Source of the DNA: Candidatus Latescibacterota bacterium
GTDB lineage: Bacteria; Latescibacterota; UBA2968; GCA-2709665
Direction: 5' to 3'
Assembly (NCBI GenBank): GCA_965219455.1
Contig: OZ244744.1
Location: 5,664,001 to 5,728,000 of the forward strand
Length of the DNA: 64,000 nucleotides
Position 1 is the stretch's first letter, and every line of letters starts with the position of its first letter. This document shows positions 33,995-41,875 of this stretch, piece by piece. Both the position numbers and the translations under genes were made by a program. Below the pieces are notes generated by a model. That model was not told the DNA's origin. It saw nothing but the letters and a program-made list of their open reading frames with translations, and made no database searches.

Positions 33995-34594
33995 TCATTC
34001 ACCGGTCGAACGGGGCAAAAACTCCGCCTCACCGATGTGGCAGGTTGCGCAGGTGGCCGGTACTCCGTCTGACGTGATCAACGATCCCTCGTAGTGGTCC
34101 ATCATATATTTGGCCATCAGCTTGTGTTTGGTCGGCTGCTCGGGCGCGAGCCGTCCGTCTTCGCGCCTGACGTGGCAGAAGTCGCAGTTTACCCCCAGCG
34201 CTTTCTCGATGGCTTTCATCTTCCGAAATATCTCCCGCCGGGGCAGCCGCCCAGAAAGGTTGGACGGCCTGGCGTCCTCGAGGTCCCGAGGAATGAACCG
34301 GGCTCTGCCCTGGTGGCAGAACATGCAGTCCAGCGTCTTCCCTTCTGCTGTATTCAGCCCACCCACAAAGTGAACTTTCATATGGATGGCTGTTTGCTTG
34401 AACAATGAAGGCGCTTCGAAATCGGGTTTTCCATCTGGTCTCCTTGCAGTATGACAATGAGTACACCGTACCCCGAGAGACCTGGCAATTCGCTTCATGT
34501 TCTCTTCGCTTGTGTCCAGCACGTGGCCCCGATCGGCATGGGCGGCAACTGCCGAAACACCCATTCCAATCGCAATCAGCAGCAATTTCGTCAA
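33995..34594 (-). CDS. Periplasmic tetraheme cytochrome c (PufC/CytoC_RC-like repeats)
   Basis: Signal peptide AAHA-D; four CxxCH motifs (LGVRCTHCH, CMFCHQG, LGVNCDFCH, CATCHIG); GGAGG before TTG 34594. Confidence 0.85.
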   Translation of the reverse strand: MTKLLLIAIGMGVSAVAAHADRGHVLDTSEENMKRIARSLGVRCTHCHTARRPDGKPDFEAPSLFKQTAIHMKVHFVGGLNTAEGKTLDCMFCHQGRARFIPRDLEDARPSNLSGRLPRREIFRKMKAIEKALGVNCDFCHVRREDGRLAPEQPTKHKLMAKYMMDHYEGSLITSDGVPATCATCHIGEAEFLPRSTGE

Positions 34595-34725
34595 AACACC
34601 TCCACAAAGAAATCCCCGGCTATCGCCAGAGCAACCGCACCACATCGCTCACCTTCATCCACTTGAATAACCGCTTTCGCGATCGCTGTATTTTCACGCG
34701 CGGCGCTGGTGTGTGTCATTGTGCC

Positions 34726-36090
34726 TCAGTTCACTTTTCCGGCAACGATAGAGCGCCCGTCGACACCACCGGGAACATCCAGACCGACGGCGTCGAAGAG
34801 CGTTGGAAACACGTCGATCAGTCGAACCTTTTGTTGTGATAGATCCGCCTTGCGATTGATGAAAAACATCGCGTCCGAGAATGTATGGGTGCCATTTACA
34901 GGACCGCGCTCCATCAATTCCCCGCTCTCAAACCCGCCCTTCAAATCGTAGCCTTCCGCCGGCATGGCCACCAGATCCGGCGCCTGTTCAAAGGCATCGC
35001 CTGCATAGAGTTCCTCGCGCTTGAAAATCCTATGGATCACCGGTTCACCCGTTACAGGATTTCGGATTTCCATCAGACCGCTGGCGATGTCCTGTCTCAG
35101 CGCCTCGTATTCCGCTCCCGGTTCCACGCATCCACCACGCTCCCGCCCACGTAAACAAAGGTAAAAACGCCCAGGCAGGAGCGAATAACATCTCGTGCCG
35201 GGCGCCAGGTCGCGAAGCCCCCTGGCCGTTCTACCCAGGAAGCGCAAATAACCAGCCTGGCGCAGCCAGTAATTCAATTGTACTTCATACTTCAGCTTGC
35301 AGAATCCATGATCGGATATTATCATCAGCAGGACATCATCGTTAAGCCGGTCCGCCACGTCACCGATTGCACGGTCCACCCGAGCATAAAACCGGTGGAA
35401 CCACGGCAGATACGCCTCGCTGCCGTCTTCAACCAGTCCCCACAAAAAATGGTGTAACCTGTCCGTTTCTATAACGTGGGCGACAAACAGGTCCCATGGC
35501 TCCTGGTCCAGGTAGTGGAACATCGCGTCGAACCGCCGTTCCATGGCCTGGAAGACGTCGTCCAGGAATCGCTCCCTATCCTTGCGGGCCAGCCACGCGT
35601 CGATGTCAATCCGATATCCCATTGAAGACAGTTGACGTGCAACCGCGGCGGGATAGGTTCCCCTGTTCAGATCCGGCGCCAGAAATCCGGAAATCAGAAT
35701 GCCGTTCACCGCCCTGGGTGGATAGGTGGTCGGCACGCCCATGGAAAAGACACGCCTGCCCATCCCGCTGAAAATCTCCGTCCAGGTTCTGACACGCATC
35801 GTTCTGGACGAGGGGATGTACATTTCATGAGTCTTCGGCACACGATCGATGAAGCCATAGATATTGTGCCTGCCGGGATTGCAGCCGGTTACCAGCGACG
35901 CCCAGGCCACCGACGATACGGTAGGCAAGACCGACTCCATGCGCGCCAGGCTTCCGCTACGCATCAAGGCGGCGAGATTCGGCATGCTGCCGTCGGAAAC
36001 TAGGCGTTTTATCAAACTGCAGGGGGTTCCATCCAGGCCAATAATCATGGCCCGTGAAGGCCCATCTCGAGGGAGGTTAACCGAAATCAT
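34726..36090 (-). CDS. Alkaline phosphatase superfamily / type I phosphodiesterase-nucleotide pyrophosphatase
   Basis: IIGLDG, PTVSSVAW, TGCNPGRHNIYGF, ETDRLHH, SDHGF, GTH. Confidence 0.88.
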   Translation of the reverse strand: MISVNLPRDGPSRAMIIGLDGTPCSLIKRLVSDGSMPNLAALMRSGSLARMESVLPTVSSVAWASLVTGCNPGRHNIYGFIDRVPKTHEMYIPSSRTMRVRTWTEIFSGMGRRVFSMGVPTTYPPRAVNGILISGFLAPDLNRGTYPAAVARQLSSMGYRIDIDAWLARKDRERFLDDVFQAMERRFDAMFHYLDQEPWDLFVAHVIETDRLHHFLWGLVEDGSEAYLPWFHRFYARVDRAIGDVADRLNDDVLLMIISDHGFCKLKYEVQLNYWLRQAGYLRFLGRTARGLRDLAPGTRCYSLLPGRFYLCLRGRERGGCVEPGAEYEALRQDIASGLMEIRNPVTGEPVIHRIFKREELYAGDAFEQAPDLVAMPAEGYDLKGGFESGELMERGPVNGTHTFSDAMFFINRKADLSQQKVRLIDVFPTLFDAVGLDVPGGVDGRSIVAGKVN

Positions 36091-36167: not shown

Positions 36168-36245
36168 TGGGGTGAGTGAGGGGACTTGAACCCCCGACCT
36201 CCTGGGCCACAACCAGGCGCTCTAACCATCTGAGCTACACCCACC
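36168..36245 (-). tRNA. tRNA-His (GUG)
   Basis: Cloverleaf, anticodon GTG, G-1, GGTTCAAGT T-loop, encoded CCA. Confidence 0.95.
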
Positions 36246-36261: not shown

Positions 36262-36335
<74 letters not shown>

Positions 36336-36577
36336 CTCAAGTCCGGCGCACGAAGCTTTCTACTAGAAATCGAACATTAAAGATAGCCCAATCTCCCTGT
36401 GGTGTCAAGCGAAAACAGTGCGGCGCCGGGTTATGTAAAGATCTGTAAATTTGGGCTCTATGTAGTCTCGAGAAACAAAATCCGCCTTGCTATCCGGACG
36501 CATGTGAGGTATATTTCAGCGCGAGAAACCCAGGCTCTCGCCTCACGTCCACATCTTACGGATCGGGGAAATCCCGC

Positions 36578-37549
36578 ATGCGACCCTTCTCAGCCCTCTA
36601 TCTGTTCCTGTTCCTTGTAGCGCTAATTTTCGCGGCGCCCGCCGCCCATGCTCAAGGTGGCGTCAGCTGACGGCGCCCCGTGCTCCCGGGCGGGAGCTTG
36701 ATGAAGAATAGTTCGTCAGTAAAGGATCAGCTGAAGCTCAGCGTTCATTACGATTACGAATTCTTATCAGACCCACACTACGGTTCCCGCGCCATACCGA
36801 ACGTTAATCGCGAGCGAACGGATAATGCCACGACCACCGTTTTTGCCTCGCACGGCGTTACCGAACGCATCGGCCTGACGCTCGCCCTGCCTTTCCGTTC
36901 AGTAACCAACGAAAAGGTGCTGTTGCGCGGACAGAATCACAACCAGTACGAGGGTGGGAAGTATGTTCGGCATGCTTCCGGACTGGGCGATATTGTGGTT
37001 ATGTTGAATTACGCGGCACCCATTGCAGTGGGCTTTCCCGGTTTGAATTTCGGCATCGGATTGAAGCTGGCAAACGGATCCACCAATGACAAAGACCAAT
37101 ACGGCGAACGTTTCTCTGACAATCTGCAGATCGGGTCGGGAAGCGTGGACCCGATTCTCGCGTTGAATGCATTCCATCGTCTAAAAAACCTGACGGTCTC
37201 GGGCGGTGTCTTCACGCGCATAACGACGAGGCAAAACATCTACGGCTACAAATATGGAAACGAACTGCACGCCACCTTCTCCGTTGAGTACGCTAACGAA
37301 GGCTTGTTCTACGGCGGGCTGAGTCTGAAAAACCTGATCACCTCACGGGACCGTTACCAGTTCGGTCAGATAACAAGAGAACGGGGAGGGAGGTGGTTGT
37401 ATCTTTCGCCTGAATTGGGGGTCAACATCCTGGACGATCTAAGCGTTGAATTCCGTCTGCCCATTGTCGTATTTCAAAATGTGAATGAGAGCCAGCTGAC
37501 GTCGGGCTATCTGATTGAGCTGAGCACGTCATACGTCTTCTCGCTTTAG
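36578..37549 (+). CDS. Probable selenocysteine-containing outer-membrane beta-barrel (MetA-pathway/transporter-like)
   Basis: ATG 36578 gives signal peptide ..APAAHA-QGGVS, TGA 36668-36670, then in-frame ORF with GLGDI, GIGLKLANG, LQIGSGSVD and C-terminal YVF. Confidence 0.75.
36682..36697 (+). promoter_or_regulatory. Candidate bacterial SECIS hairpin
   Basis: GCTCCC-GGGC-GGGAGC, 11 nt after the TGA, G-rich apical loop. Confidence 0.65.
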
Positions 37550-37559
37550 GCGATCCGGC

Positions 37560-38636
37560 ATGCACCATACAGGAAAAACACACGGCCGGTTCGTTTTTTT
37601 TACTCTGTGCATGTTCCTTTGTGTGTTGGGCTGTTCGCTTTATCTGGACGACGAAGAGCCGGATCATTTCTACGAATTCAAAGATTTCGAAATCCTGAAA
37701 CTCGGCGTGAATATCTCGGATATGGTCATGGATCCGAACCAGCCATTTCTCTATCTCGCAGACTATGGAAACAACCGGATTCTCCGCATCCACATTGGCA
37801 AGCAGATGGTCGTTGAAGGGAACCTCCAGGTGGGTTCCCACCCCATCGACCTCGACATTACACCGGACCAACGCCATCTGGTGGTGGGTTTAAACGGTGA
37901 ATCGAACCTGAAAATAATCGACCTGAGTACATTCGCCATTGTGAAGACCGTTCCCTTCTCACTGAACGATATCTCCCACATCGTCTGCGGAACCGACTCA
38001 ATTGTCTATGTATCTTCGCTGGACGAACCGCTGCTGATTGCCGTATCCATTGTGGACGACCTCGAGACCAGCGGGAATGTGCGTTCCGGCACCCTTCTCA
38101 TGAATCACCGCGACCGTAAGCTCTTCGTTGCTGCCAGGAACAACGTCCTGAAATACGACGCTTCAGGTCATTTTCCAACAACCGCGACCACTTCGACCCG
38201 TTTCAGTTTTTCAGCCAGGATAAACGATTTCGTGATGGGCCCTCTTAACGACCATCTCTACCTGGGTCTGGCGGATCCGCTGGACCGTGACCACGTAAAA
38301 GATCTTTGGTCATTCAGCACCGACAATCTGACGCTGACGGGCAAATACGAAATCAAGTCTCCTGCTCTGGGGCTTGCGCTGAGCCGCGACGGCCGGCGTT
38401 TGTTCGTTGCACCTACAGACGCGGATGAAGCGGGTGTTTTCATCGTTGAATTCGATACTCAAACCAAGCTGGAGAAAAACTATTTCCTTGCGGCGGGAAA
38501 CCTCAAGGAACGGGGCATTGCCATAGACAACAACGATCAATACCTTTATGTGGCGGTGTTTACGCCCGGCGACGACGATACCTTCGAACCCTACAATGTC
38601 AATTCGTACGATCTTCAGCGAATCAGAGTCGACTGA
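37560..38636 (+). CDS. YncE-like beta-propeller lipoprotein
   Basis: Lipobox VLGC; repeats LYLADYGNNRI, VGSHPIDLDITPD, GLALSRDGRRLFVA, GIAIDNNDQYLYVA. Confidence 0.78.
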   Translation: MHHTGKTHGRFVFFTLCMFLCVLGCSLYLDDEEPDHFYEFKDFEILKLGVNISDMVMDPNQPFLYLADYGNNRILRIHIGKQMVVEGNLQVGSHPIDLDITPDQRHLVVGLNGESNLKIIDLSTFAIVKTVPFSLNDISHIVCGTDSIVYVSSLDEPLLIAVSIVDDLETSGNVRSGTLLMNHRDRKLFVAARNNVLKYDASGHFPTTATTSTRFSFSARINDFVMGPLNDHLYLGLADPLDRDHVKDLWSFSTDNLTLTGKYEIKSPALGLALSRDGRRLFVAPTDADEAGVFIVEFDTQTKLEKNYFLAAGNLKERGIAIDNNDQYLYVAVFTPGDDDTFEPYNVNSYDLQRIRVD

Positions 38637-38705
38637 CCCGTACCTGACTGCTCCTCCGGAGGAACCCGCTGGCGCTCGCAATATTGGGGCGGTTCCCATT
38701 TGGGC

Positions 38706-39428
38706 TCACCCGCCTTGTGTTTCGTGATCGTATCTGCACAGATGGGAAATCGGACAGACACTGCAGGACGGATTCCTCGCCGTGCATACTGTCTTGCCTA
38801 AATCAACCACGTTCATGTGGAAAGATATAGCCTGACCGCCCGGAATCAGTGGCGCGAGTTCCAGGTGTGCTTTCTCTCGGCCACATCGCGCTGAAATAAT
38901 CCCCACCCGGCGCAGGATGCGATACACATGCGTATCCACTGCGCACAGATCCCGATCAAAAGCGAAGGCCAGCACAATATAAGCCGTTTTGATCCCAATG
39001 CCTCGATGTTGGGTCAACAGGTCCACTGCGGTCTGATTCGGAAGATCCCGCAGGAAATCCAAATTCAAGTTCCCCCGTTCGCGCTTCAACCAACGCAAAA
39101 ACGCATGCATATTCGGGGCTTTTGTATTCGCCAATCCTGCCACGCGGATGGCGTCCTTCAGGTGCGCCACGTCTGCGGCCATCACGTCGCTCCAATCAGG
39201 AAATCGCGAACGCATCCTGTTATAGGCCCTGTCTCTGTTTTCGTCGTTCGTATTTTGAGACAGGATGGTCCGCATCAGCGCATCGAGGCCATCCGGCCGG
39301 ACACGTTTAAGGTCCCAGGCTGCGCCCCCGAACGTTTCGTTGAGTACACTGGACATTTCAGCTATCACCGCAACACGCGTCTGACTTAACGGGCTGTTCC
39401 ACCACGCCATGAAAGTACACATTGGCAC
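38706..39428 (-). CDS. nth: Endonuclease III-like HhH-GPD DNA glycosylase
   Basis: TILSQNT, GIGIKTA, VDTHVYR, CTARNPSCSVCPISHLC; start uncertain. Confidence 0.85.
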   Translation of the reverse strand: MPMCTFMAWWNSPLSQTRVAVIAEMSSVLNETFGGAAWDLKRVRPDGLDALMRTILSQNTNDENRDRAYNRMRSRFPDWSDVMAADVAHLKDAIRVAGLANTKAPNMHAFLRWLKRERGNLNLDFLRDLPNQTAVDLLTQHRGIGIKTAYIVLAFAFDRDLCAVDTHVYRILRRVGIISARCGREKAHLELAPLIPGGQAISFHMNVVDLGKTVCTARNPSCSVCPISHLCRYDHETQGG

Positions 39429-39748: not shown

Positions 39749-40384
39749 ATGCCCAAAAAACGACTTTCTCAATATGAAAGACGCCACCAGATTATCGATG
39801 TCGCAATTTCCCATTTTGCCTCCAAAGGTTTTAAGGGCGCCACAACACGAGCCATTGCCCGGGCCGCGGACGTCTCGGAAGCAATTATCTTCCGGCATTT
39901 CGCCACCAAAGAAGACCTATATGACGCCATAATCAACGACACGGTCGCCAGGTGGCTGCACTTCTGGGAGCAGGAAGGCAGTCCCGGCGATTCAGACGAC
40001 CTGGAATCCATGTTGCGCCACTTCGCCTGTTTCTACATCCAGCGAAATCGTCGGGATCCCACGTTTATCCGCCTGATGATGTACAGTGCGCTGGAAGACC
40101 ACAAATTCCGGGAGAAATTCTTCACCATTTACTCGTCTCCAAGTATGAGAGCCATTCGGCAGGCCATCGAAGAGGGTATCTCACAAGGACGTTTCAGAGA
40201 CGTGGACGTGCAACTGACCTTGAGATCTTTTTTCTGGGCTCTCCTTCACTATTGTATTAGCAGGTTCATTGCCAGCCACGAAAACGTCGACAGGGCCGAA
40301 GATCGCAAAATGATCGACAATCTGGTGCAGATCTTTATGGATGCATTGACCATGCGGCCATCTGCAGTAACTCCGCAACGATAG
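39749..40384 (+). CDS. TetR/AcrR family regulator
   Basis: FASKGFKGATTRAIARAADVSEAIIFRHFATKEDLY. Confidence 0.93.
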   Translation: MPKKRLSQYERRHQIIDVAISHFASKGFKGATTRAIARAADVSEAIIFRHFATKEDLYDAIINDTVARWLHFWEQEGSPGDSDDLESMLRHFACFYIQRNRRDPTFIRLMMYSALEDHKFREKFFTIYSSPSMRAIRQAIEEGISQGRFRDVDVQLTLRSFFWALLHYCISRFIASHENVDRAEDRKMIDNLVQIFMDALTMRPSAVTPQR

Positions 40385-40525: not shown

Positions 40526-41875
40526 ATGCATATCGACCTCCGGTTTCTGGATACAGGCAAGGCCATCCGGGATCCCATCTGGGGGCATATCCACATTCCC
40601 CAATATCTGGTGCCGCTCGTTGACGCCGAGGAATTCCAGCGCCTGCGAGACATCTCCCAGCTTGGCCACGTGCTTCTTGTGTATCCTGGCGCACGCCACT
40701 CCCGATTTGAACACTCTCTGGGAGTCTTTCATATTGCCGGACAGTTTCTTCGCCAGCTTCTCCAGGCTGATCCACCGCTGGACATCACGATTGAAGACGT
40801 ACGCGTACTACTGGCGGCCAGCCTGCTGCACGACATTGGTCACTACCCATTCTGCCATGTGCTCGAAGAAATGCAGATGTTTTTTACTGACCACGAGGAA
40901 CGGGGCCGGCAGATCATCCTGGACCCCTCCACCGAAGTCAACTGCGCCTTGTTACGGGCGGAGACCGACCCCCTTCGGGTGGCCAACGTAATCGACTATC
41001 GCAACGAAAACGTGGTCATTCCCGATGAAGACATGCAACTGGCGCACATTCTGAGTGGTACACTCGACCCGGATAAAATCGACTATCTCCTGAGAGATGC
41101 ACGCTATTGCGGGGTGCCTTTTGGCGAATCTGTCAACCGGGACCGCTTGTTGGGTTCGATCACGTGTGATCCGGAGGGACAGCGGCCCGCAATCACCTAC
41201 AAGGGTGTCTCGGCGGTGGAGGCCCTCATATTCACCAGTTATCTGATGTATCGCAACGTCTACTGGCACCACGCCGTGAGGTCGGCCAATGCGATGTTCA
41301 AACGGGGCGTTCAGGATCTGCTGCACCACCCCGCTTCCAGCCTCGGGGAAGGAGACTTCAACCGGGCGACGGAAGCCGACCTGATTCATCGCCTGGAACT
41401 GGAGATGGATCGGTTGGGTATCGATCGACGAAACAGCATGATAGGGCGCCTGAAACGCCGCAAACTCCACAAAGTTGCCCGAATCTTTTTCCCTCACGAG
41501 AGAGAAAAGGATCTTACCGCCAAACTTGAAAGGCTGTATTACCACCCGGCCGACCGTCGGAAACTCGAAATCGACTTATGCAAGACATTCGGCGTGAAGA
41601 CCGGGCTCAGACTTGAGGGCAACGAAATCCTGATCGATATTCCCCGCCTTGGAAAAAGCCCCGAAGTAGACCTGAATGTCTACTTCGGGTCCCACATCCC
41701 GGTCGACAAAGCCGACCCTCTCCGGTTCGATGACCCGGAAGTCTCCATGCTCAAGGAATATTTAATTGGCAATTTTGAAACGCAGGCCAAGGTCGTACGT
41801 GTCTTCTGCGTCGATCGCCCGACTCTCAAAGAAGCGCTTAGGACCGAGGTGATCGACCACATCAAGTCAGCTTAG
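40526..41875 (+). CDS. HD-domain phosphohydrolase (COG1078/SAMHD1-like)
   Basis: DPIWGHI, QRLRDISQLG..YPGARHSRFEHSLG, LLHDIGH, DKIDYLLRD, MYRNVYWH. Confidence 0.88.
   Translation: MHIDLRFLDTGKAIRDPIWGHIHIPQYLVPLVDAEEFQRLRDISQLGHVLLVYPGARHSRFEHSLGVFHIAGQFLRQLLQADPPLDITIEDVRVLLAASLLHDIGHYPFCHVLEEMQMFFTDHEERGRQIILDPSTEVNCALLRAETDPLRVANVIDYRNENVVIPDEDMQLAHILSGTLDPDKIDYLLRDARYCGVPFGESVNRDRLLGSITCDPEGQRPAITYKGVSAVEALIFTSYLMYRNVYWHHAVRSANAMFKRGVQDLLHHPASSLGEGDFNRATEADLIHRLELEMDRLGIDRRNSMIGRLKRRKLHKVARIFFPHEREKDLTAKLERLYYHPADRRKLEIDLCKTFGVKTGLRLEGNEILIDIPRLGKSPEVDLNVYFGSHIPVDKADPLRFDDPEVSMLKEYLIGNFETQAKVVRVFCVDRPTLKEALRTEVIDHIKSA

Follow-up and report, generated by a model that had tools for sequence, protein, structure and literature searches.

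The UGA codon at positions 36668-36670 of the window (the whole 64,000-nucleotide stretch of Latescibacterota DNA that was analysed) almost certainly encodes selenocysteine (Sec), and the frame that runs through it is almost certainly one gene for an exported outer-membrane channel that carries selenium near its mature tip. The whole explanation, which joins Sec coding and the barrel to chemistry on an N-terminal arm, reduction of this arm by a thioredoxin, and a propeller lipoprotein as partner, is probable. The features of the locus to which the text refers are as follows.

36487..36515, + strand: promoter-like TTGCTA-17-TATATT (consensus scan, 9/12 matches; weak pattern match only)
36565..36569, + strand: Shine-Dalgarno-like GGGGA, 8 nt 5' of ATG 36578 (read from the sequence)
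36578..37549, + strand: coding sequence of the predicted Sec barrel, 323 residues including U31, closed by TAG at 37547-37549 (translation with TGA = U)
36578..36652, + strand: predicted signal peptide, residues 1-25, with predicted cleavage after A-H-A
36668..36670, + strand: UGA read as Sec (U31), the sixth residue after the predicted cleavage (invariant alignment columns)
36682..36697, + strand: hairpin of the bacterial SECIS type, with GCUCCC/GGGAGC as its 6-bp stem and GGGC as its apical loop, 11 nt 3' of the TGA
37560..38636, + strand: lipoprotein of 358 aa with a seven-bladed beta-propeller; its lipobox Cys25 is encoded at 37632-37634 (ORF listing)

Gene Model of the Barrel

The program that listed the open reading frames places the first start codon of the gene at GTG 36680, which gives a 289-aa product that has no signal peptide. 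The preliminary description had proposed that the frame be extended upstream through the TGA to ATG 36578, and all the elements of this extension, including a predicted signal peptide of 25 residues, are present at the coordinates listed above. Read with TGA as U, the N-terminus is MRPFSALYLFLFLVALIFAAPAAHA-QGGVS-U-RRPVLPGG... The leader has an Arg in its n-region, then a hydrophobic core and an AxA motif, and residues 3-23 form a helix in the AlphaFold2 (AF2) model; in the homologues, a hydrophobic leader is kept in frame and its sequence diverges freely. The promoter-like match is consistent with a transcription start before ATG 36578.

All 14-15 genomes of the genus carry orthologues of 36578-37549 (80-86% identical) and paralogues (52-54% identical), each with one in-frame TGA and no more. 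The TGA is also spanned by a DNA contig that comes from another study (run X7, record 8, 36625-36915) and shows no difference there. Contigs from RNA libraries (X17, X18), at a depth of 2-3, fall on parts of the barrel and lipoprotein genes; they leave the TGA uncovered and the two genes unbridged, and DNA carry-over is possible.

The truncation by gene callers that had been predicted for this gene is seen in its homologues, most of which are 282-289 aa long in the database and start at or near LPGG. In public records, the affected genes are misnamed as a 'transporter' or 'hypothetical protein' that has no signal peptide.

Conservation of the UGA Codon

The in-frame TGA and the hairpin recur in 33 of the 38 match rows obtained from 61 related genomes, with exactly one TGA in each. 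A scan of all species genomes gave 60 loci that span Latescibacterota, KSB1, Calditrichaceae, Fidelibacterota and Marinimicrobia and reach down to 32% identity; in 58 of them a TGA falls on the U of the shared motif G-[V/I]-S-U-R-R-P-x-L-P-G-G, and in the 58 distinct DNA rows of the alignment it occupies the invariant columns 10-12. The same arrangement, again with the TGA, is found in all nine loci of a subfamily in which the barrel is fused to a thioredoxin. Recurrence of the same TGA and hairpin at these three levels is more than chance would give. Moreover, the leader is in frame and signal-peptide-like in all 67 loci, and residues are conserved on both flanks of the TGA.

The adjoining lipoprotein gene ends in TGA (38634-38636), which indicates that this codon is an ordinary stop elsewhere in the same genome; many of the barrel genes also terminate with TGA.

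The preliminary description had suggested that homologues be compared at this column for TGA or Cys. The conserved TGA was found, and aligned Cys, a customary but not obligatory criterion, was absent from the homologues among database proteins, the 60 loci and the nine fusion loci. Other residues, which it had regarded as evidence against Sec, are rare: Ser occurs in two database proteins (P0014, P0020), and Glu or Pro in two distant ones (P0093, P0072), with the R-R-P-x-L-P-G-G motif kept in these homologues. W stands in this column in some database proteins; the N-termini of two of them, P0032 and P0033, match the TGA loci L081, L098 and L083 nearly letter for letter, and judged from these sequences, what looks like Trp is very probably a TGA codon read as W.

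A Hairpin of the Bacterial SECIS Type

The perfect hairpin GCTCCC-GGGC-GGGAGC that had been reported 11 nt after the UGA is present at 36682-36697. Its loop begins 17 nt past the UGA, and folded alone with RNAfold it has an energy of −10.4 kcal/mol. In the alignment of 58 rows, 93.1% of the cells are paired, and the middle pair is CG in 35 rows, UA in 18, UG in three, AU in one and GC in one, with none unpaired. The covariation score was reached by none of 500 shuffles, and every slid register scored lower. The covariation falls on the third codon positions of Leu and Gly, where it is synonymous, and includes all four Watson-Crick combinations. Position 2 of the loop is an invariant G, usually followed by a second G.

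According to the part of a 2026 catalogue of selenoproteins consulted here (PMC13188914), the bSECIS model calls for a UGA-to-loop distance of 16-37 nt, a loop of 3-9 nt, a stem of 4-16 bp, an energy limit of −7.5 kcal/mol, and a G at loop position 1 or 2 with G or U after it. With a spacing of 17 nt, a loop of 4 nt, a stem of 5-6 bp and the loop G, the hairpin fits these constraints as given there, and together with its covariation this bears out the earlier proposal of an fdhF-like spacing and a G-containing loop. Like the SECIS of Escherichia coli fdhF, it is a stem-loop inside the coding sequence directly 3' of the UGA; unlike the fdhF-type element and the bSECIS model, it is very short, and several variants are weaker than the limit. 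The variants folded alone range from −4.8 to −10.4 kcal/mol, so that some lineages miss −7.5 kcal/mol. The local fold of a 71-nt stretch is not significantly better than that of shuffles (z = −1.29), and it is therefore the comparison across genomes, and not thermodynamics, that supports the hairpin. A scan of 36400-36900 against Rfam (E <= 10) gave no bacterial SECIS family among the matches. The same scan returned gyrA-RNA, which we rejected as a chance match, since its 13 bits fall far short of the gathering score (45).

Selenocysteine Machinery

The genome encodes SelA (481 bits), a SelB wing domain (75 bits), SelD (360 bits) and tRNA-SeC (C1:4377535-4377632), so that the search for selA, selB, selC and selD proposed earlier found all four. 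The selA, selB and tRNA-Sec genes are clustered, and selD carries a TGA of its own. Among related genomes, 57 of 61 have SelA, with or without the barrel; its presence is thus a necessary condition only. In other phyla, SelA was found in four of five barrel-carrying genomes and not found in one. G018, in which SelA was not found, is an 80% complete genome.

Barrel Fold and N-Terminal Arm

An exported outer-membrane barrel had been predicted from the sequence, and the fold comparisons uphold it. The protein matches Pfam PF13557 above the cut-off (26.1 bits against 22, E 1.1e-5, residues 112-294), and its AF2 model (pLDDT 82.6) superposes in VIA on 4rl8 (4rl8_C) with Z 25.3 and an rmsd of 2.4 Å over 253 of 268 residues, covering model residues 37-321; the Foldseek E-value for 4rl8 is 1.6e-10. 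The top Foldseek match is FapF (5o65; E 8e-13), with a VIA Z of 23.4. These model-based data strongly support the assignment of the 36578-37549 product as a predicted 12-stranded outer-membrane barrel of the COG4313/FapF type.

The known COG4313/PF13557 channels, represented by Pput2725 of Pseudomonas putida F1 (PDB 4rl8), likewise have a 12-stranded barrel with a preceding N-terminal segment, to which the present subfamily adds a predicted Sec arm, a SECIS-type element within the reading frame, a thioredoxin of its own and a propeller lipoprotein. The amyloid-secretion channel FapF of Pseudomonas (5o65) also has a 12-stranded barrel and an N-terminal plug, but is only 13-14% identical, and no fap operon surrounds the present locus; a common fold is no proof of a common function. 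In COG4313-type barrels, the stretch ahead of strand 1 blocks the lumen, as the N-terminal segment of Pput2725 does, and both the N- and C-termini are periplasmic; the COG4313 family takes up hydrophobic molecules.

Confidence in the modelled arm is low (pLDDT 55-64 over residues 21-40), and the structural alignment with 4rl8 begins at residue 37. The predicted mature barrel has no Cys (three loci with over-long start calls aside), which leaves Sec as its only chalcogen nucleophile. The nearest non-Sec relatives have AQG-CC-S or CxxxC just past the signal peptide, in agreement with the earlier remark that N-terminal Cys residues are frequent in such barrels; the CC motif of these relatives, judged by eye, lies 2-3 residues before the U column.

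Thioredoxin Link

In several phyla, the gene immediately 5' of the barrel encodes a CxxC redoxin that begins with a hydrophobic segment; this is so at 11 loci of orthologues and 13 of paralogues. In the genome under study, the paralogue lies in an operon that encodes an NHL-propeller lipoprotein, a redoxin with a WCTTC site, a Sec barrel and a methyltransferase. NCBIfam gives the last of these only as a generic class I SAM methyltransferase, with all matches below the cut-offs, and methylation of arsenic or selenium is not claimed. The operon of the window barrel itself has no redoxin, and the Marinimicrobia-type loci that are not part of the L073-L079 group (titles Fidelibacterota, Neomarinimicrobiota and Marinimicrobia among others) yielded none within 3 kb.

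The linked redoxin matches Pfam Redoxin and AhpC-TSA above the cut-offs, and in NCBIfam it comes closest to ResA, TlpA and DsbE (38-53 bits, all below the cut-offs). It shares the N-terminal hydrophobic segment and the W-C-x-x-C site with the periplasmic thiol-disulfide reductases of the TlpA/ResA/CcmG type, from which it differs in its sub-cut-off scores and in its proposed client, a selenolate on an outer-membrane barrel.

In nine database proteins, the thioredoxin is fused to the C-terminus of the barrel. The nine fusion loci were located with a four-member alignment, and their genome titles are Acidobacteria/Blastocatellia, Zixiibacteriota, Ignavibacteria/Ignavibacteriales and Alphaproteobacteria. 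Beyond two closely related loci, the neighbourhoods of this subfamily have nothing in common, and none gave a propeller match. Since other lineages have a CxxC thioredoxin 5' of the barrel or as part of the same protein, we infer from gene order and fusion that Sec may have a redox or ligand-binding role, and the metal or redox role suggested earlier gains strength from this link.

Downstream Propeller Lipoprotein

The lipoprotein ORF begins 10 nt past the TAG of the barrel and has the lipobox VLG-C25. It matches the Pfam families Lactonase and SGL, and its AF2 model (pLDDT 85.8) contains about 28 strands. Foldseek relates it to the YVTN propeller 1l0q (E 1.7e-13, 20% identity) and to YncE 3vgz (TM 0.71); WD40 G-beta chains score equally well, so that only the general propeller fold is shown by these matches. 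The YncE-like lipoprotein of the preliminary description is thus recovered as a seven-bladed propeller resembling YncE/YVTN, and its synteny extends across phyla, with the gene directly 3' of the barrel in 45 of the 60 loci. From this gene order, it is probably the outer-membrane partner of the barrel.

Cys25 is invariant in all 25 aligned orthologues and in all 23 rows of a second alignment (A4). Most of the 25 orthologues have C-S-L-Y-x-D-x-E-x-P after the lipobox, a stretch that the deepest clade does not have. Besides the lipobox Cys, the 25 aligned orthologues share no invariant Cys or His, and the propeller therefore gives no hint of a chemistry common to it and the barrel.

Proposed Function

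SelB and tRNA-Sec very probably insert Sec at UGA 36668 under the guidance of the minimal SECIS-type hairpin 11 nt downstream. The predicted product consists of the signal peptide, a short arm Q-G-G-V-S-U-R-R-P-V-L-P-G-G and the barrel. Sec on this flexible arm may lie at the periplasmic mouth or in the channel interior, a placement that follows from the lumen-occluding segment and the periplasmic termini of related barrels. It would most likely act as a reactive selenolate, the bond of which is made and broken with a soft electrophile crossing the outer membrane, for which a metal or metalloid ion and a sulfur or selenium species are candidates, or with an oxidant. A dedicated periplasmic CxxC thioredoxin of the TlpA/ResA-like kind would re-reduce Sec, and the propeller lipoprotein would serve the barrel as a partner at the outer membrane. 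The examined flanks of the barrel locus contain no metal-resistance genes.

In one elaboration of this mechanism, which we regard as unlikely, the Sec arm would act through the barrel as a reversible covalent hook: a chalcogen or soft metal would be caught at the cell surface as an Se-X adduct and released inside by the periplasmic thioredoxin. The cargo, e.g., selenium or sulfane sulfur, would be presented by a surface-exposed propeller lipoprotein. If true, this would be a selenol-driven transport step at the outer membrane and could even be the missing high-affinity route of selenium uptake, which, according to the consulted part of a review (PMC9312934), has not been identified.

It is unlikely that Sec is inserted but chemically idle, as a selenium-dependent gate on synthesis or a tolerated relic, with the N-terminal motif serving a structural purpose such as anchoring a plug. 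The persistence of R-R-P-x-L-P-G-G with Ser, Glu or Pro in place of U would agree with a structural motif, as would the lack of a partner Cys in the mature protein, but the TGA has been kept in 58/60 and 9/9 loci over deep divergence, with non-Sec residues rare, and a relic or a pure gate leaves unexplained why the link to a CxxC thioredoxin recurs at the level of both genes and fusions.

We consider it improbable that the Sec arm is the peroxidatic centre of a GPx/Prx-like outer-membrane peroxidase, recycled by thioredoxin and guarding envelope lipids, and not part of a ligand-handling channel. Enzymes of the GPx type work by single-Sec chemistry with no resolving Cys and with an external reductant, a mechanism that the lone Sec of the barrel would suit, and the Redoxin and AhpC-TSA matches of the neighbouring redoxin point in the same direction. 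However, its WCxxC site and its ResA/TlpA/DsbE matches are those of reductases with protein clients and not of peroxiredoxins, there is no context like a catalytic tetrad around U, and CC or CxxxC, as found in the closest relatives, would be more typical of a metal-binding site.

Finally, it is very improbable that the TGA is a true stop (behind a leader peptide, with the barrel begun at GTG 36680 or ATG 36701, or in a broken gene) or is decoded as a standard residue such as Trp: the 289-aa listed ORF and most database entries do begin past the TGA, and some other database proteins have W there, but a barrel begun past the TGA has no signal peptide, the leader is in frame at every locus with conserved residues on both sides of the codon, two of the W-bearing N-termini are near-identical to TGA-encoded ones, TGA terminates the neighbouring gene and many barrel genes, the hairpin covaries, and the contig from the separate study carries the TGA.

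Comparison with Known Selenoproteins

Accepting the reading of the UGA as Sec, the barrel would join a small group. The 2026 catalogue lists 119 selenoprotein families, of which, in the part consulted, only two are outer-membrane entries, namely the GSU2204-family MtrB/PioB barrel (NF041027) and a TonB-dependent receptor with an FCYXU motif (NF049945), both predicted Sec outer-membrane beta-barrels (PMC13188914). They belong to other barrel families, and as described there the FCYXU motif provides a CxxU, whereas here Sec stands alone in a mature protein that has no Cys. No entry matching the present family was seen among the 119 families in the same part of the catalogue, nor is Sec described there for COG4313 channels, and the barrel (P0001) matched no NCBIfam model at E <= 0.1. 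The family also appears to be undescribed in the literature searched, which included the consulted parts of PMC13188914, PMC9312934, PMC13326102 and PMC2398784; no top-ranked paper combined COG4313 with selenocysteine.

If the Sec reading is true, a widespread uncatalogued family is added to the selenoproteins, with genome titles from Latescibacterota, KSB1, Calditrichaceae, Fidelibacterota and Marinimicrobia and, through the fusion subfamily, from Acidobacteria, Zixiibacteriota, Ignavibacteria and Alphaproteobacteria. Sec at the tip of an outer-membrane channel, beside a dedicated thioredoxin, would make selenium chemistry in the envelope testable. Search methods that need a Cys aligned with the UGA miss families that have no Cys form, and gene callers truncate such genes or, on short contigs, print W for Sec.

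Organization of the Barrel Gene and Its In-Frame TGA

The ATG start, signal peptide, in-frame TGA, hairpin and downstream lipoprotein ORF reported in the preliminary description are all present in the window, as listed below.

Features of the barrel locus (window coordinates)
36168–36244, minus strand: tRNA-His (GTG) gene
36262–36335, minus strand: tRNA-Arg (TCT) gene, like the preceding one just upstream of the barrel's promoter region
36487–36515, plus strand: weak promoter-like site 5′ of the ATG at 36578
36565–36569, plus strand: Shine–Dalgarno-like GGGGA, read from the sequence, 8 nt 5′ of the ATG
36578–37549, plus strand: selenocysteine (Sec, U) barrel coding sequence, 323 residues when TGA is read as U, TAG stop
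36668–36670, plus strand: Sec codon TGA (U31) in the read-through translation
36682–36697, plus strand: perfect hairpin GCTCCC-GGGC-GGGAGC, beginning 11 nt 3′ of the TGA
37560–38636, plus strand: propeller lipoprotein ORF, starting 10 nt past the barrel TAG stop, lipobox ending in Cys25

The N-terminus of the read-through translation is MRPFSALYLFLFLVALIFAAPAAHA / QGGVS-U-RRPVLPGGSLMK..., with the Sec codon at residue 6 past the predicted A-H-A cleavage site (residue 3–6 in other lineages). The mechanical ORF list starts the barrel at GTG 36680, giving 289 residues without a signal peptide. Upstream, on the opposite strand, lie genes for a small multihaem c-type cytochrome (profile matches MtrC/MtrF-like and cytochrome c7) and an alkaline-phosphatase-superfamily phosphodiesterase (33995–34645 and 34726–36090, both minus). 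The ORFs downstream at 38706–39428 (minus), 39749–40384 (plus) and 40526–41875 (plus) give the impression, from their sequences, of an endonuclease III-type protein, a TetR-type regulator and an HD-domain protein, in that order.

Contigs of two RNA libraries labelled sponge metagenome (X17, X18) are identical to the window over 36848–37053 and 38099–38700 at a depth of 2–3; they neither cover the TGA nor bridge the barrel and lipoprotein genes, may reflect DNA carry-over, and at most hint at expression of the locus.

Conservation of the TGA Codon

When 61 related genomes were searched in six frames for the read-through protein, 38 match rows resulted, 33 of which contain exactly one in-frame TGA; the remaining five are a C-terminal fragment and four distant relatives (26–29% identity). 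All 15 genomes in the genus carry one orthologue (80–86% identity) and one paralogue (52–54%), both with the TGA, and three rows from a further genus (g5) also have a single in-frame TGA. In the translated rows, the signal peptides diverge freely in sequence while the frame is kept, and A-Q-(G/P)-G-V-S-U-R-R-P-V-L-P-G-G is invariant.

A pattern-based scan that took a single genome for each species yielded 60 loci, titled Latescibacterota (some as Gemmatimonadota), KSB1, Calditrichaceae, Fidelibacterota and Marinimicrobia/Neomarinimicrobiota. The TGA occupies the same position in 58 of them, at identities as low as 32%; neither L100, which is a partial match, nor L102, a distant protein from Oligoflexia, has it there. 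A sequencing error is countered by a DNA contig of a separate study, which spans the TGA without any change there.

Eight database homologues (P0027, P0029, P0031–P0033, P0071, P0152 and P0162) have W at the Sec position. Three genomic loci (L081, L098 and L083) encode N-termini nearly those of P0032 and P0033 but carry TGA at the W position, and the W-form proteins derive from short contigs of 1.3–2.8 kb; the W forms are therefore probably an artefact of a gene caller that went over to a TGA = Trp model upon meeting the Sec codon. It should be noted that TGA terminates the adjoining lipoprotein gene and also many barrel genes of other genomes. Among the homologue proteins and loci compared, none has Cys at the exact U column; the non-Sec residues found there are Ser (P0014, P0020), Glu (P0093) and Pro (P0072).

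SECIS-Type Hairpin and Sec Machinery

We aligned 58 distinct 72-nt rows over the 6-pair helix, which is paired in 93.1% of cells. The middle pair is CG in 35 rows, UA in 18, UG in 3, AU in 1 and GC in 1, and is never unpaired; since its two sides are the third positions of Leu and Gly codons, these changes are synonymous as well as compensatory. The observed covariation score was reached by none of 500 shuffles, and every slid register scored lower. The apical loop has 4 nt throughout, and its second position is always G. The hairpin's likeness to a bacterial Sec insertion sequence (bSECIS), previously proposed, holds in spacing (17 nt), loop and stem against the constraints set out in section 5 of a 2026 review (PMC13188914), which the free energies fit only in part: the minimal hairpin has −10.4 kcal/mol here and −4.8 to −7.0 kcal/mol in three variants. 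The local fold is no better than that of shuffled sequences (z = −1.29).

The window's own genome has the full set of Sec genes sought (selA, selB, selC and selD), with SelA, the SelB wing domain and tRNA-Sec within about 3.3 kb of one another.

Sec machinery (genome contig C1)
4374337–4377632: selA, selB and tRNA-Sec cluster
3407174–3408097, minus strand: selD, with its own in-frame TGA, and thus itself a selenoprotein

SelA is present in four of five other-phylum genomes bearing the barrel gene; because 57 of the 61 related genomes also have SelA, its co-occurrence is uninformative beyond showing that an enzyme needed for Sec synthesis is available. Overall, the conserved TGA, the covarying hairpin and the Sec machinery support the original interpretation, and the barrel UGA very probably encodes Sec, as judged from comparative sequence data. 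That the locus holds one exported gene with Sec inserted via a minimal SECIS element is strongly supported.

Barrel Fold and Comparison with Known Selenoproteins

The outer-membrane barrel assignment was borne out by a Pfam match to PF13557 (Phenol_MetA_deg), slightly over its cut-off, and by structure; an NCBIfam search with the barrel gave no match. In Foldseek, the AlphaFold2 model (33 sequences, pLDDT 82.6) has as its top matches FapF (5o65) and the COG4313 channel 4rl8. VIA-align gave Z = 25.3 for 4rl8 (rmsd 2.4 Å, 253 residues, model 37–321) and Z = 23.4 for FapF. These matches identify the protein as a COG4313/FapF-type barrel with 12 strands. The N-terminal arm (residues 26–40) has low model confidence, and the predicted mature barrel contains no cysteine.

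Table 1 of the review (PMC13188914) comprises 119 prokaryotic selenoprotein families; outer-membrane proteins are represented by the GSU2204/MtrB-PioB barrel and by a TonB-dependent receptor with an FCYXU motif, PF13557/COG4313 has no entry, and the read-through protein matched none of the NCBIfam models cited there. The terms "COG4313" and "selenocysteine" occur together in none of the papers ranked by a literature search, and "outer membrane" and "signal peptide" are absent from the main texts of BSepDB (PMC13326102), whose family list is in its supplement, and of the GOS study (PMC2398784). The Sec barrel represents a genuine selenoprotein family that builds on a known channel fold and appears to be uncatalogued.

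Conserved Neighbours of the Barrel

The proposed pairing with a beta-propeller lipoprotein was confirmed as gene order: a lipoprotein homologue lies directly 3′ of the barrel in 45 of the 60 loci, the others being 13 Latescibacterota paralogue loci, one contig-end locus and L102. The lipobox Cys is invariant and in most orthologues opens C-S-L-Y-x-D-x-E-x-P; the orthologue alignment has no further invariant Cys or His. The lipoprotein model (pLDDT 85.8) is a generic seven-bladed propeller, equally like the YVTN S-layer propeller, YncE and WD40 proteins.

When flanking ORFs were clustered, a further conserved partner emerged: a redoxin that has a W-C-x-x-C site and is hydrophobic near its N-terminus, and whose best NCBIfam matches (ResA, TlpA and DsbE) are each under their cut-offs. 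In 11 orthologue loci (titles including Calditrichaceae, KSB1, Fidelibacterota and Neomarinimicrobiota) and in all 13 paralogue loci it lies immediately 5′ of the barrel gene. The paralogue operon of the window's own genome is, in order:

402000–414000 (contig C1, L103): region with the operon of an NHL-repeat beta-propeller lipoprotein, a WCTTC TlpA-like redoxin, a Sec barrel and a class I SAM methyltransferase

This second Sec barrel is 54% identical to the window barrel and also has one TGA; across the genus, paralogue loci keep the methyltransferase on the downstream side.

A profile run against 1.84 billion representatives hit 19 proteins with E < 1e-30 and 2,257 with E < 1e-3. Among the matches inspected were nine barrels that are truncated at the N-terminus and carry a thioredoxin domain at the C-terminus (eight CxxC, one CxxS). 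DNA at nine fusion loci (L104–L112; titles Acidobacteria/Blastocatellia, Zixiibacteriota, Ignavibacteria/Ignavibacteriales and Alphaproteobacteria) in every case encodes a signal peptide and V-(K/R)-U-A-x-x-x-L-P-V-G, with the same hairpin (CTYCC-GGTC-GGRAG) 11 nt 3′ of the TGA, and the database proteins of this subfamily are N-terminally truncated without exception. The barrel recurrently adjoins or is fused to a CxxC thioredoxin, and the fusions give independent evidence of a joint function. Directly after the signal peptide, the closest full-length relatives that lack Sec have A-Q-G-C-C-S and others have C-x-x-x-C, so that an N-terminal chalcogen motif is a theme of the barrel superfamily.

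Even-stranded barrels of this kind have both termini on the periplasmic side, so the Sec arm could meet a C-terminal or separate thioredoxin there. Sec may act as a reactive selenolate towards a substrate at the channel, either binding or reducing it, and would be reset by the thioredoxin; candidate substrates are soft metals or metalloids, sulfur or selenium species, and oxidants.

In 30 loci (within the set L057, L058 and L073–L101), a large protein with a Por_Secre_tail domain (type IX secretion C-terminal sorting) adjoins the barrel operon on either strand; the one representative scanned, from L097, has cohesin- and dockerin-like parts.
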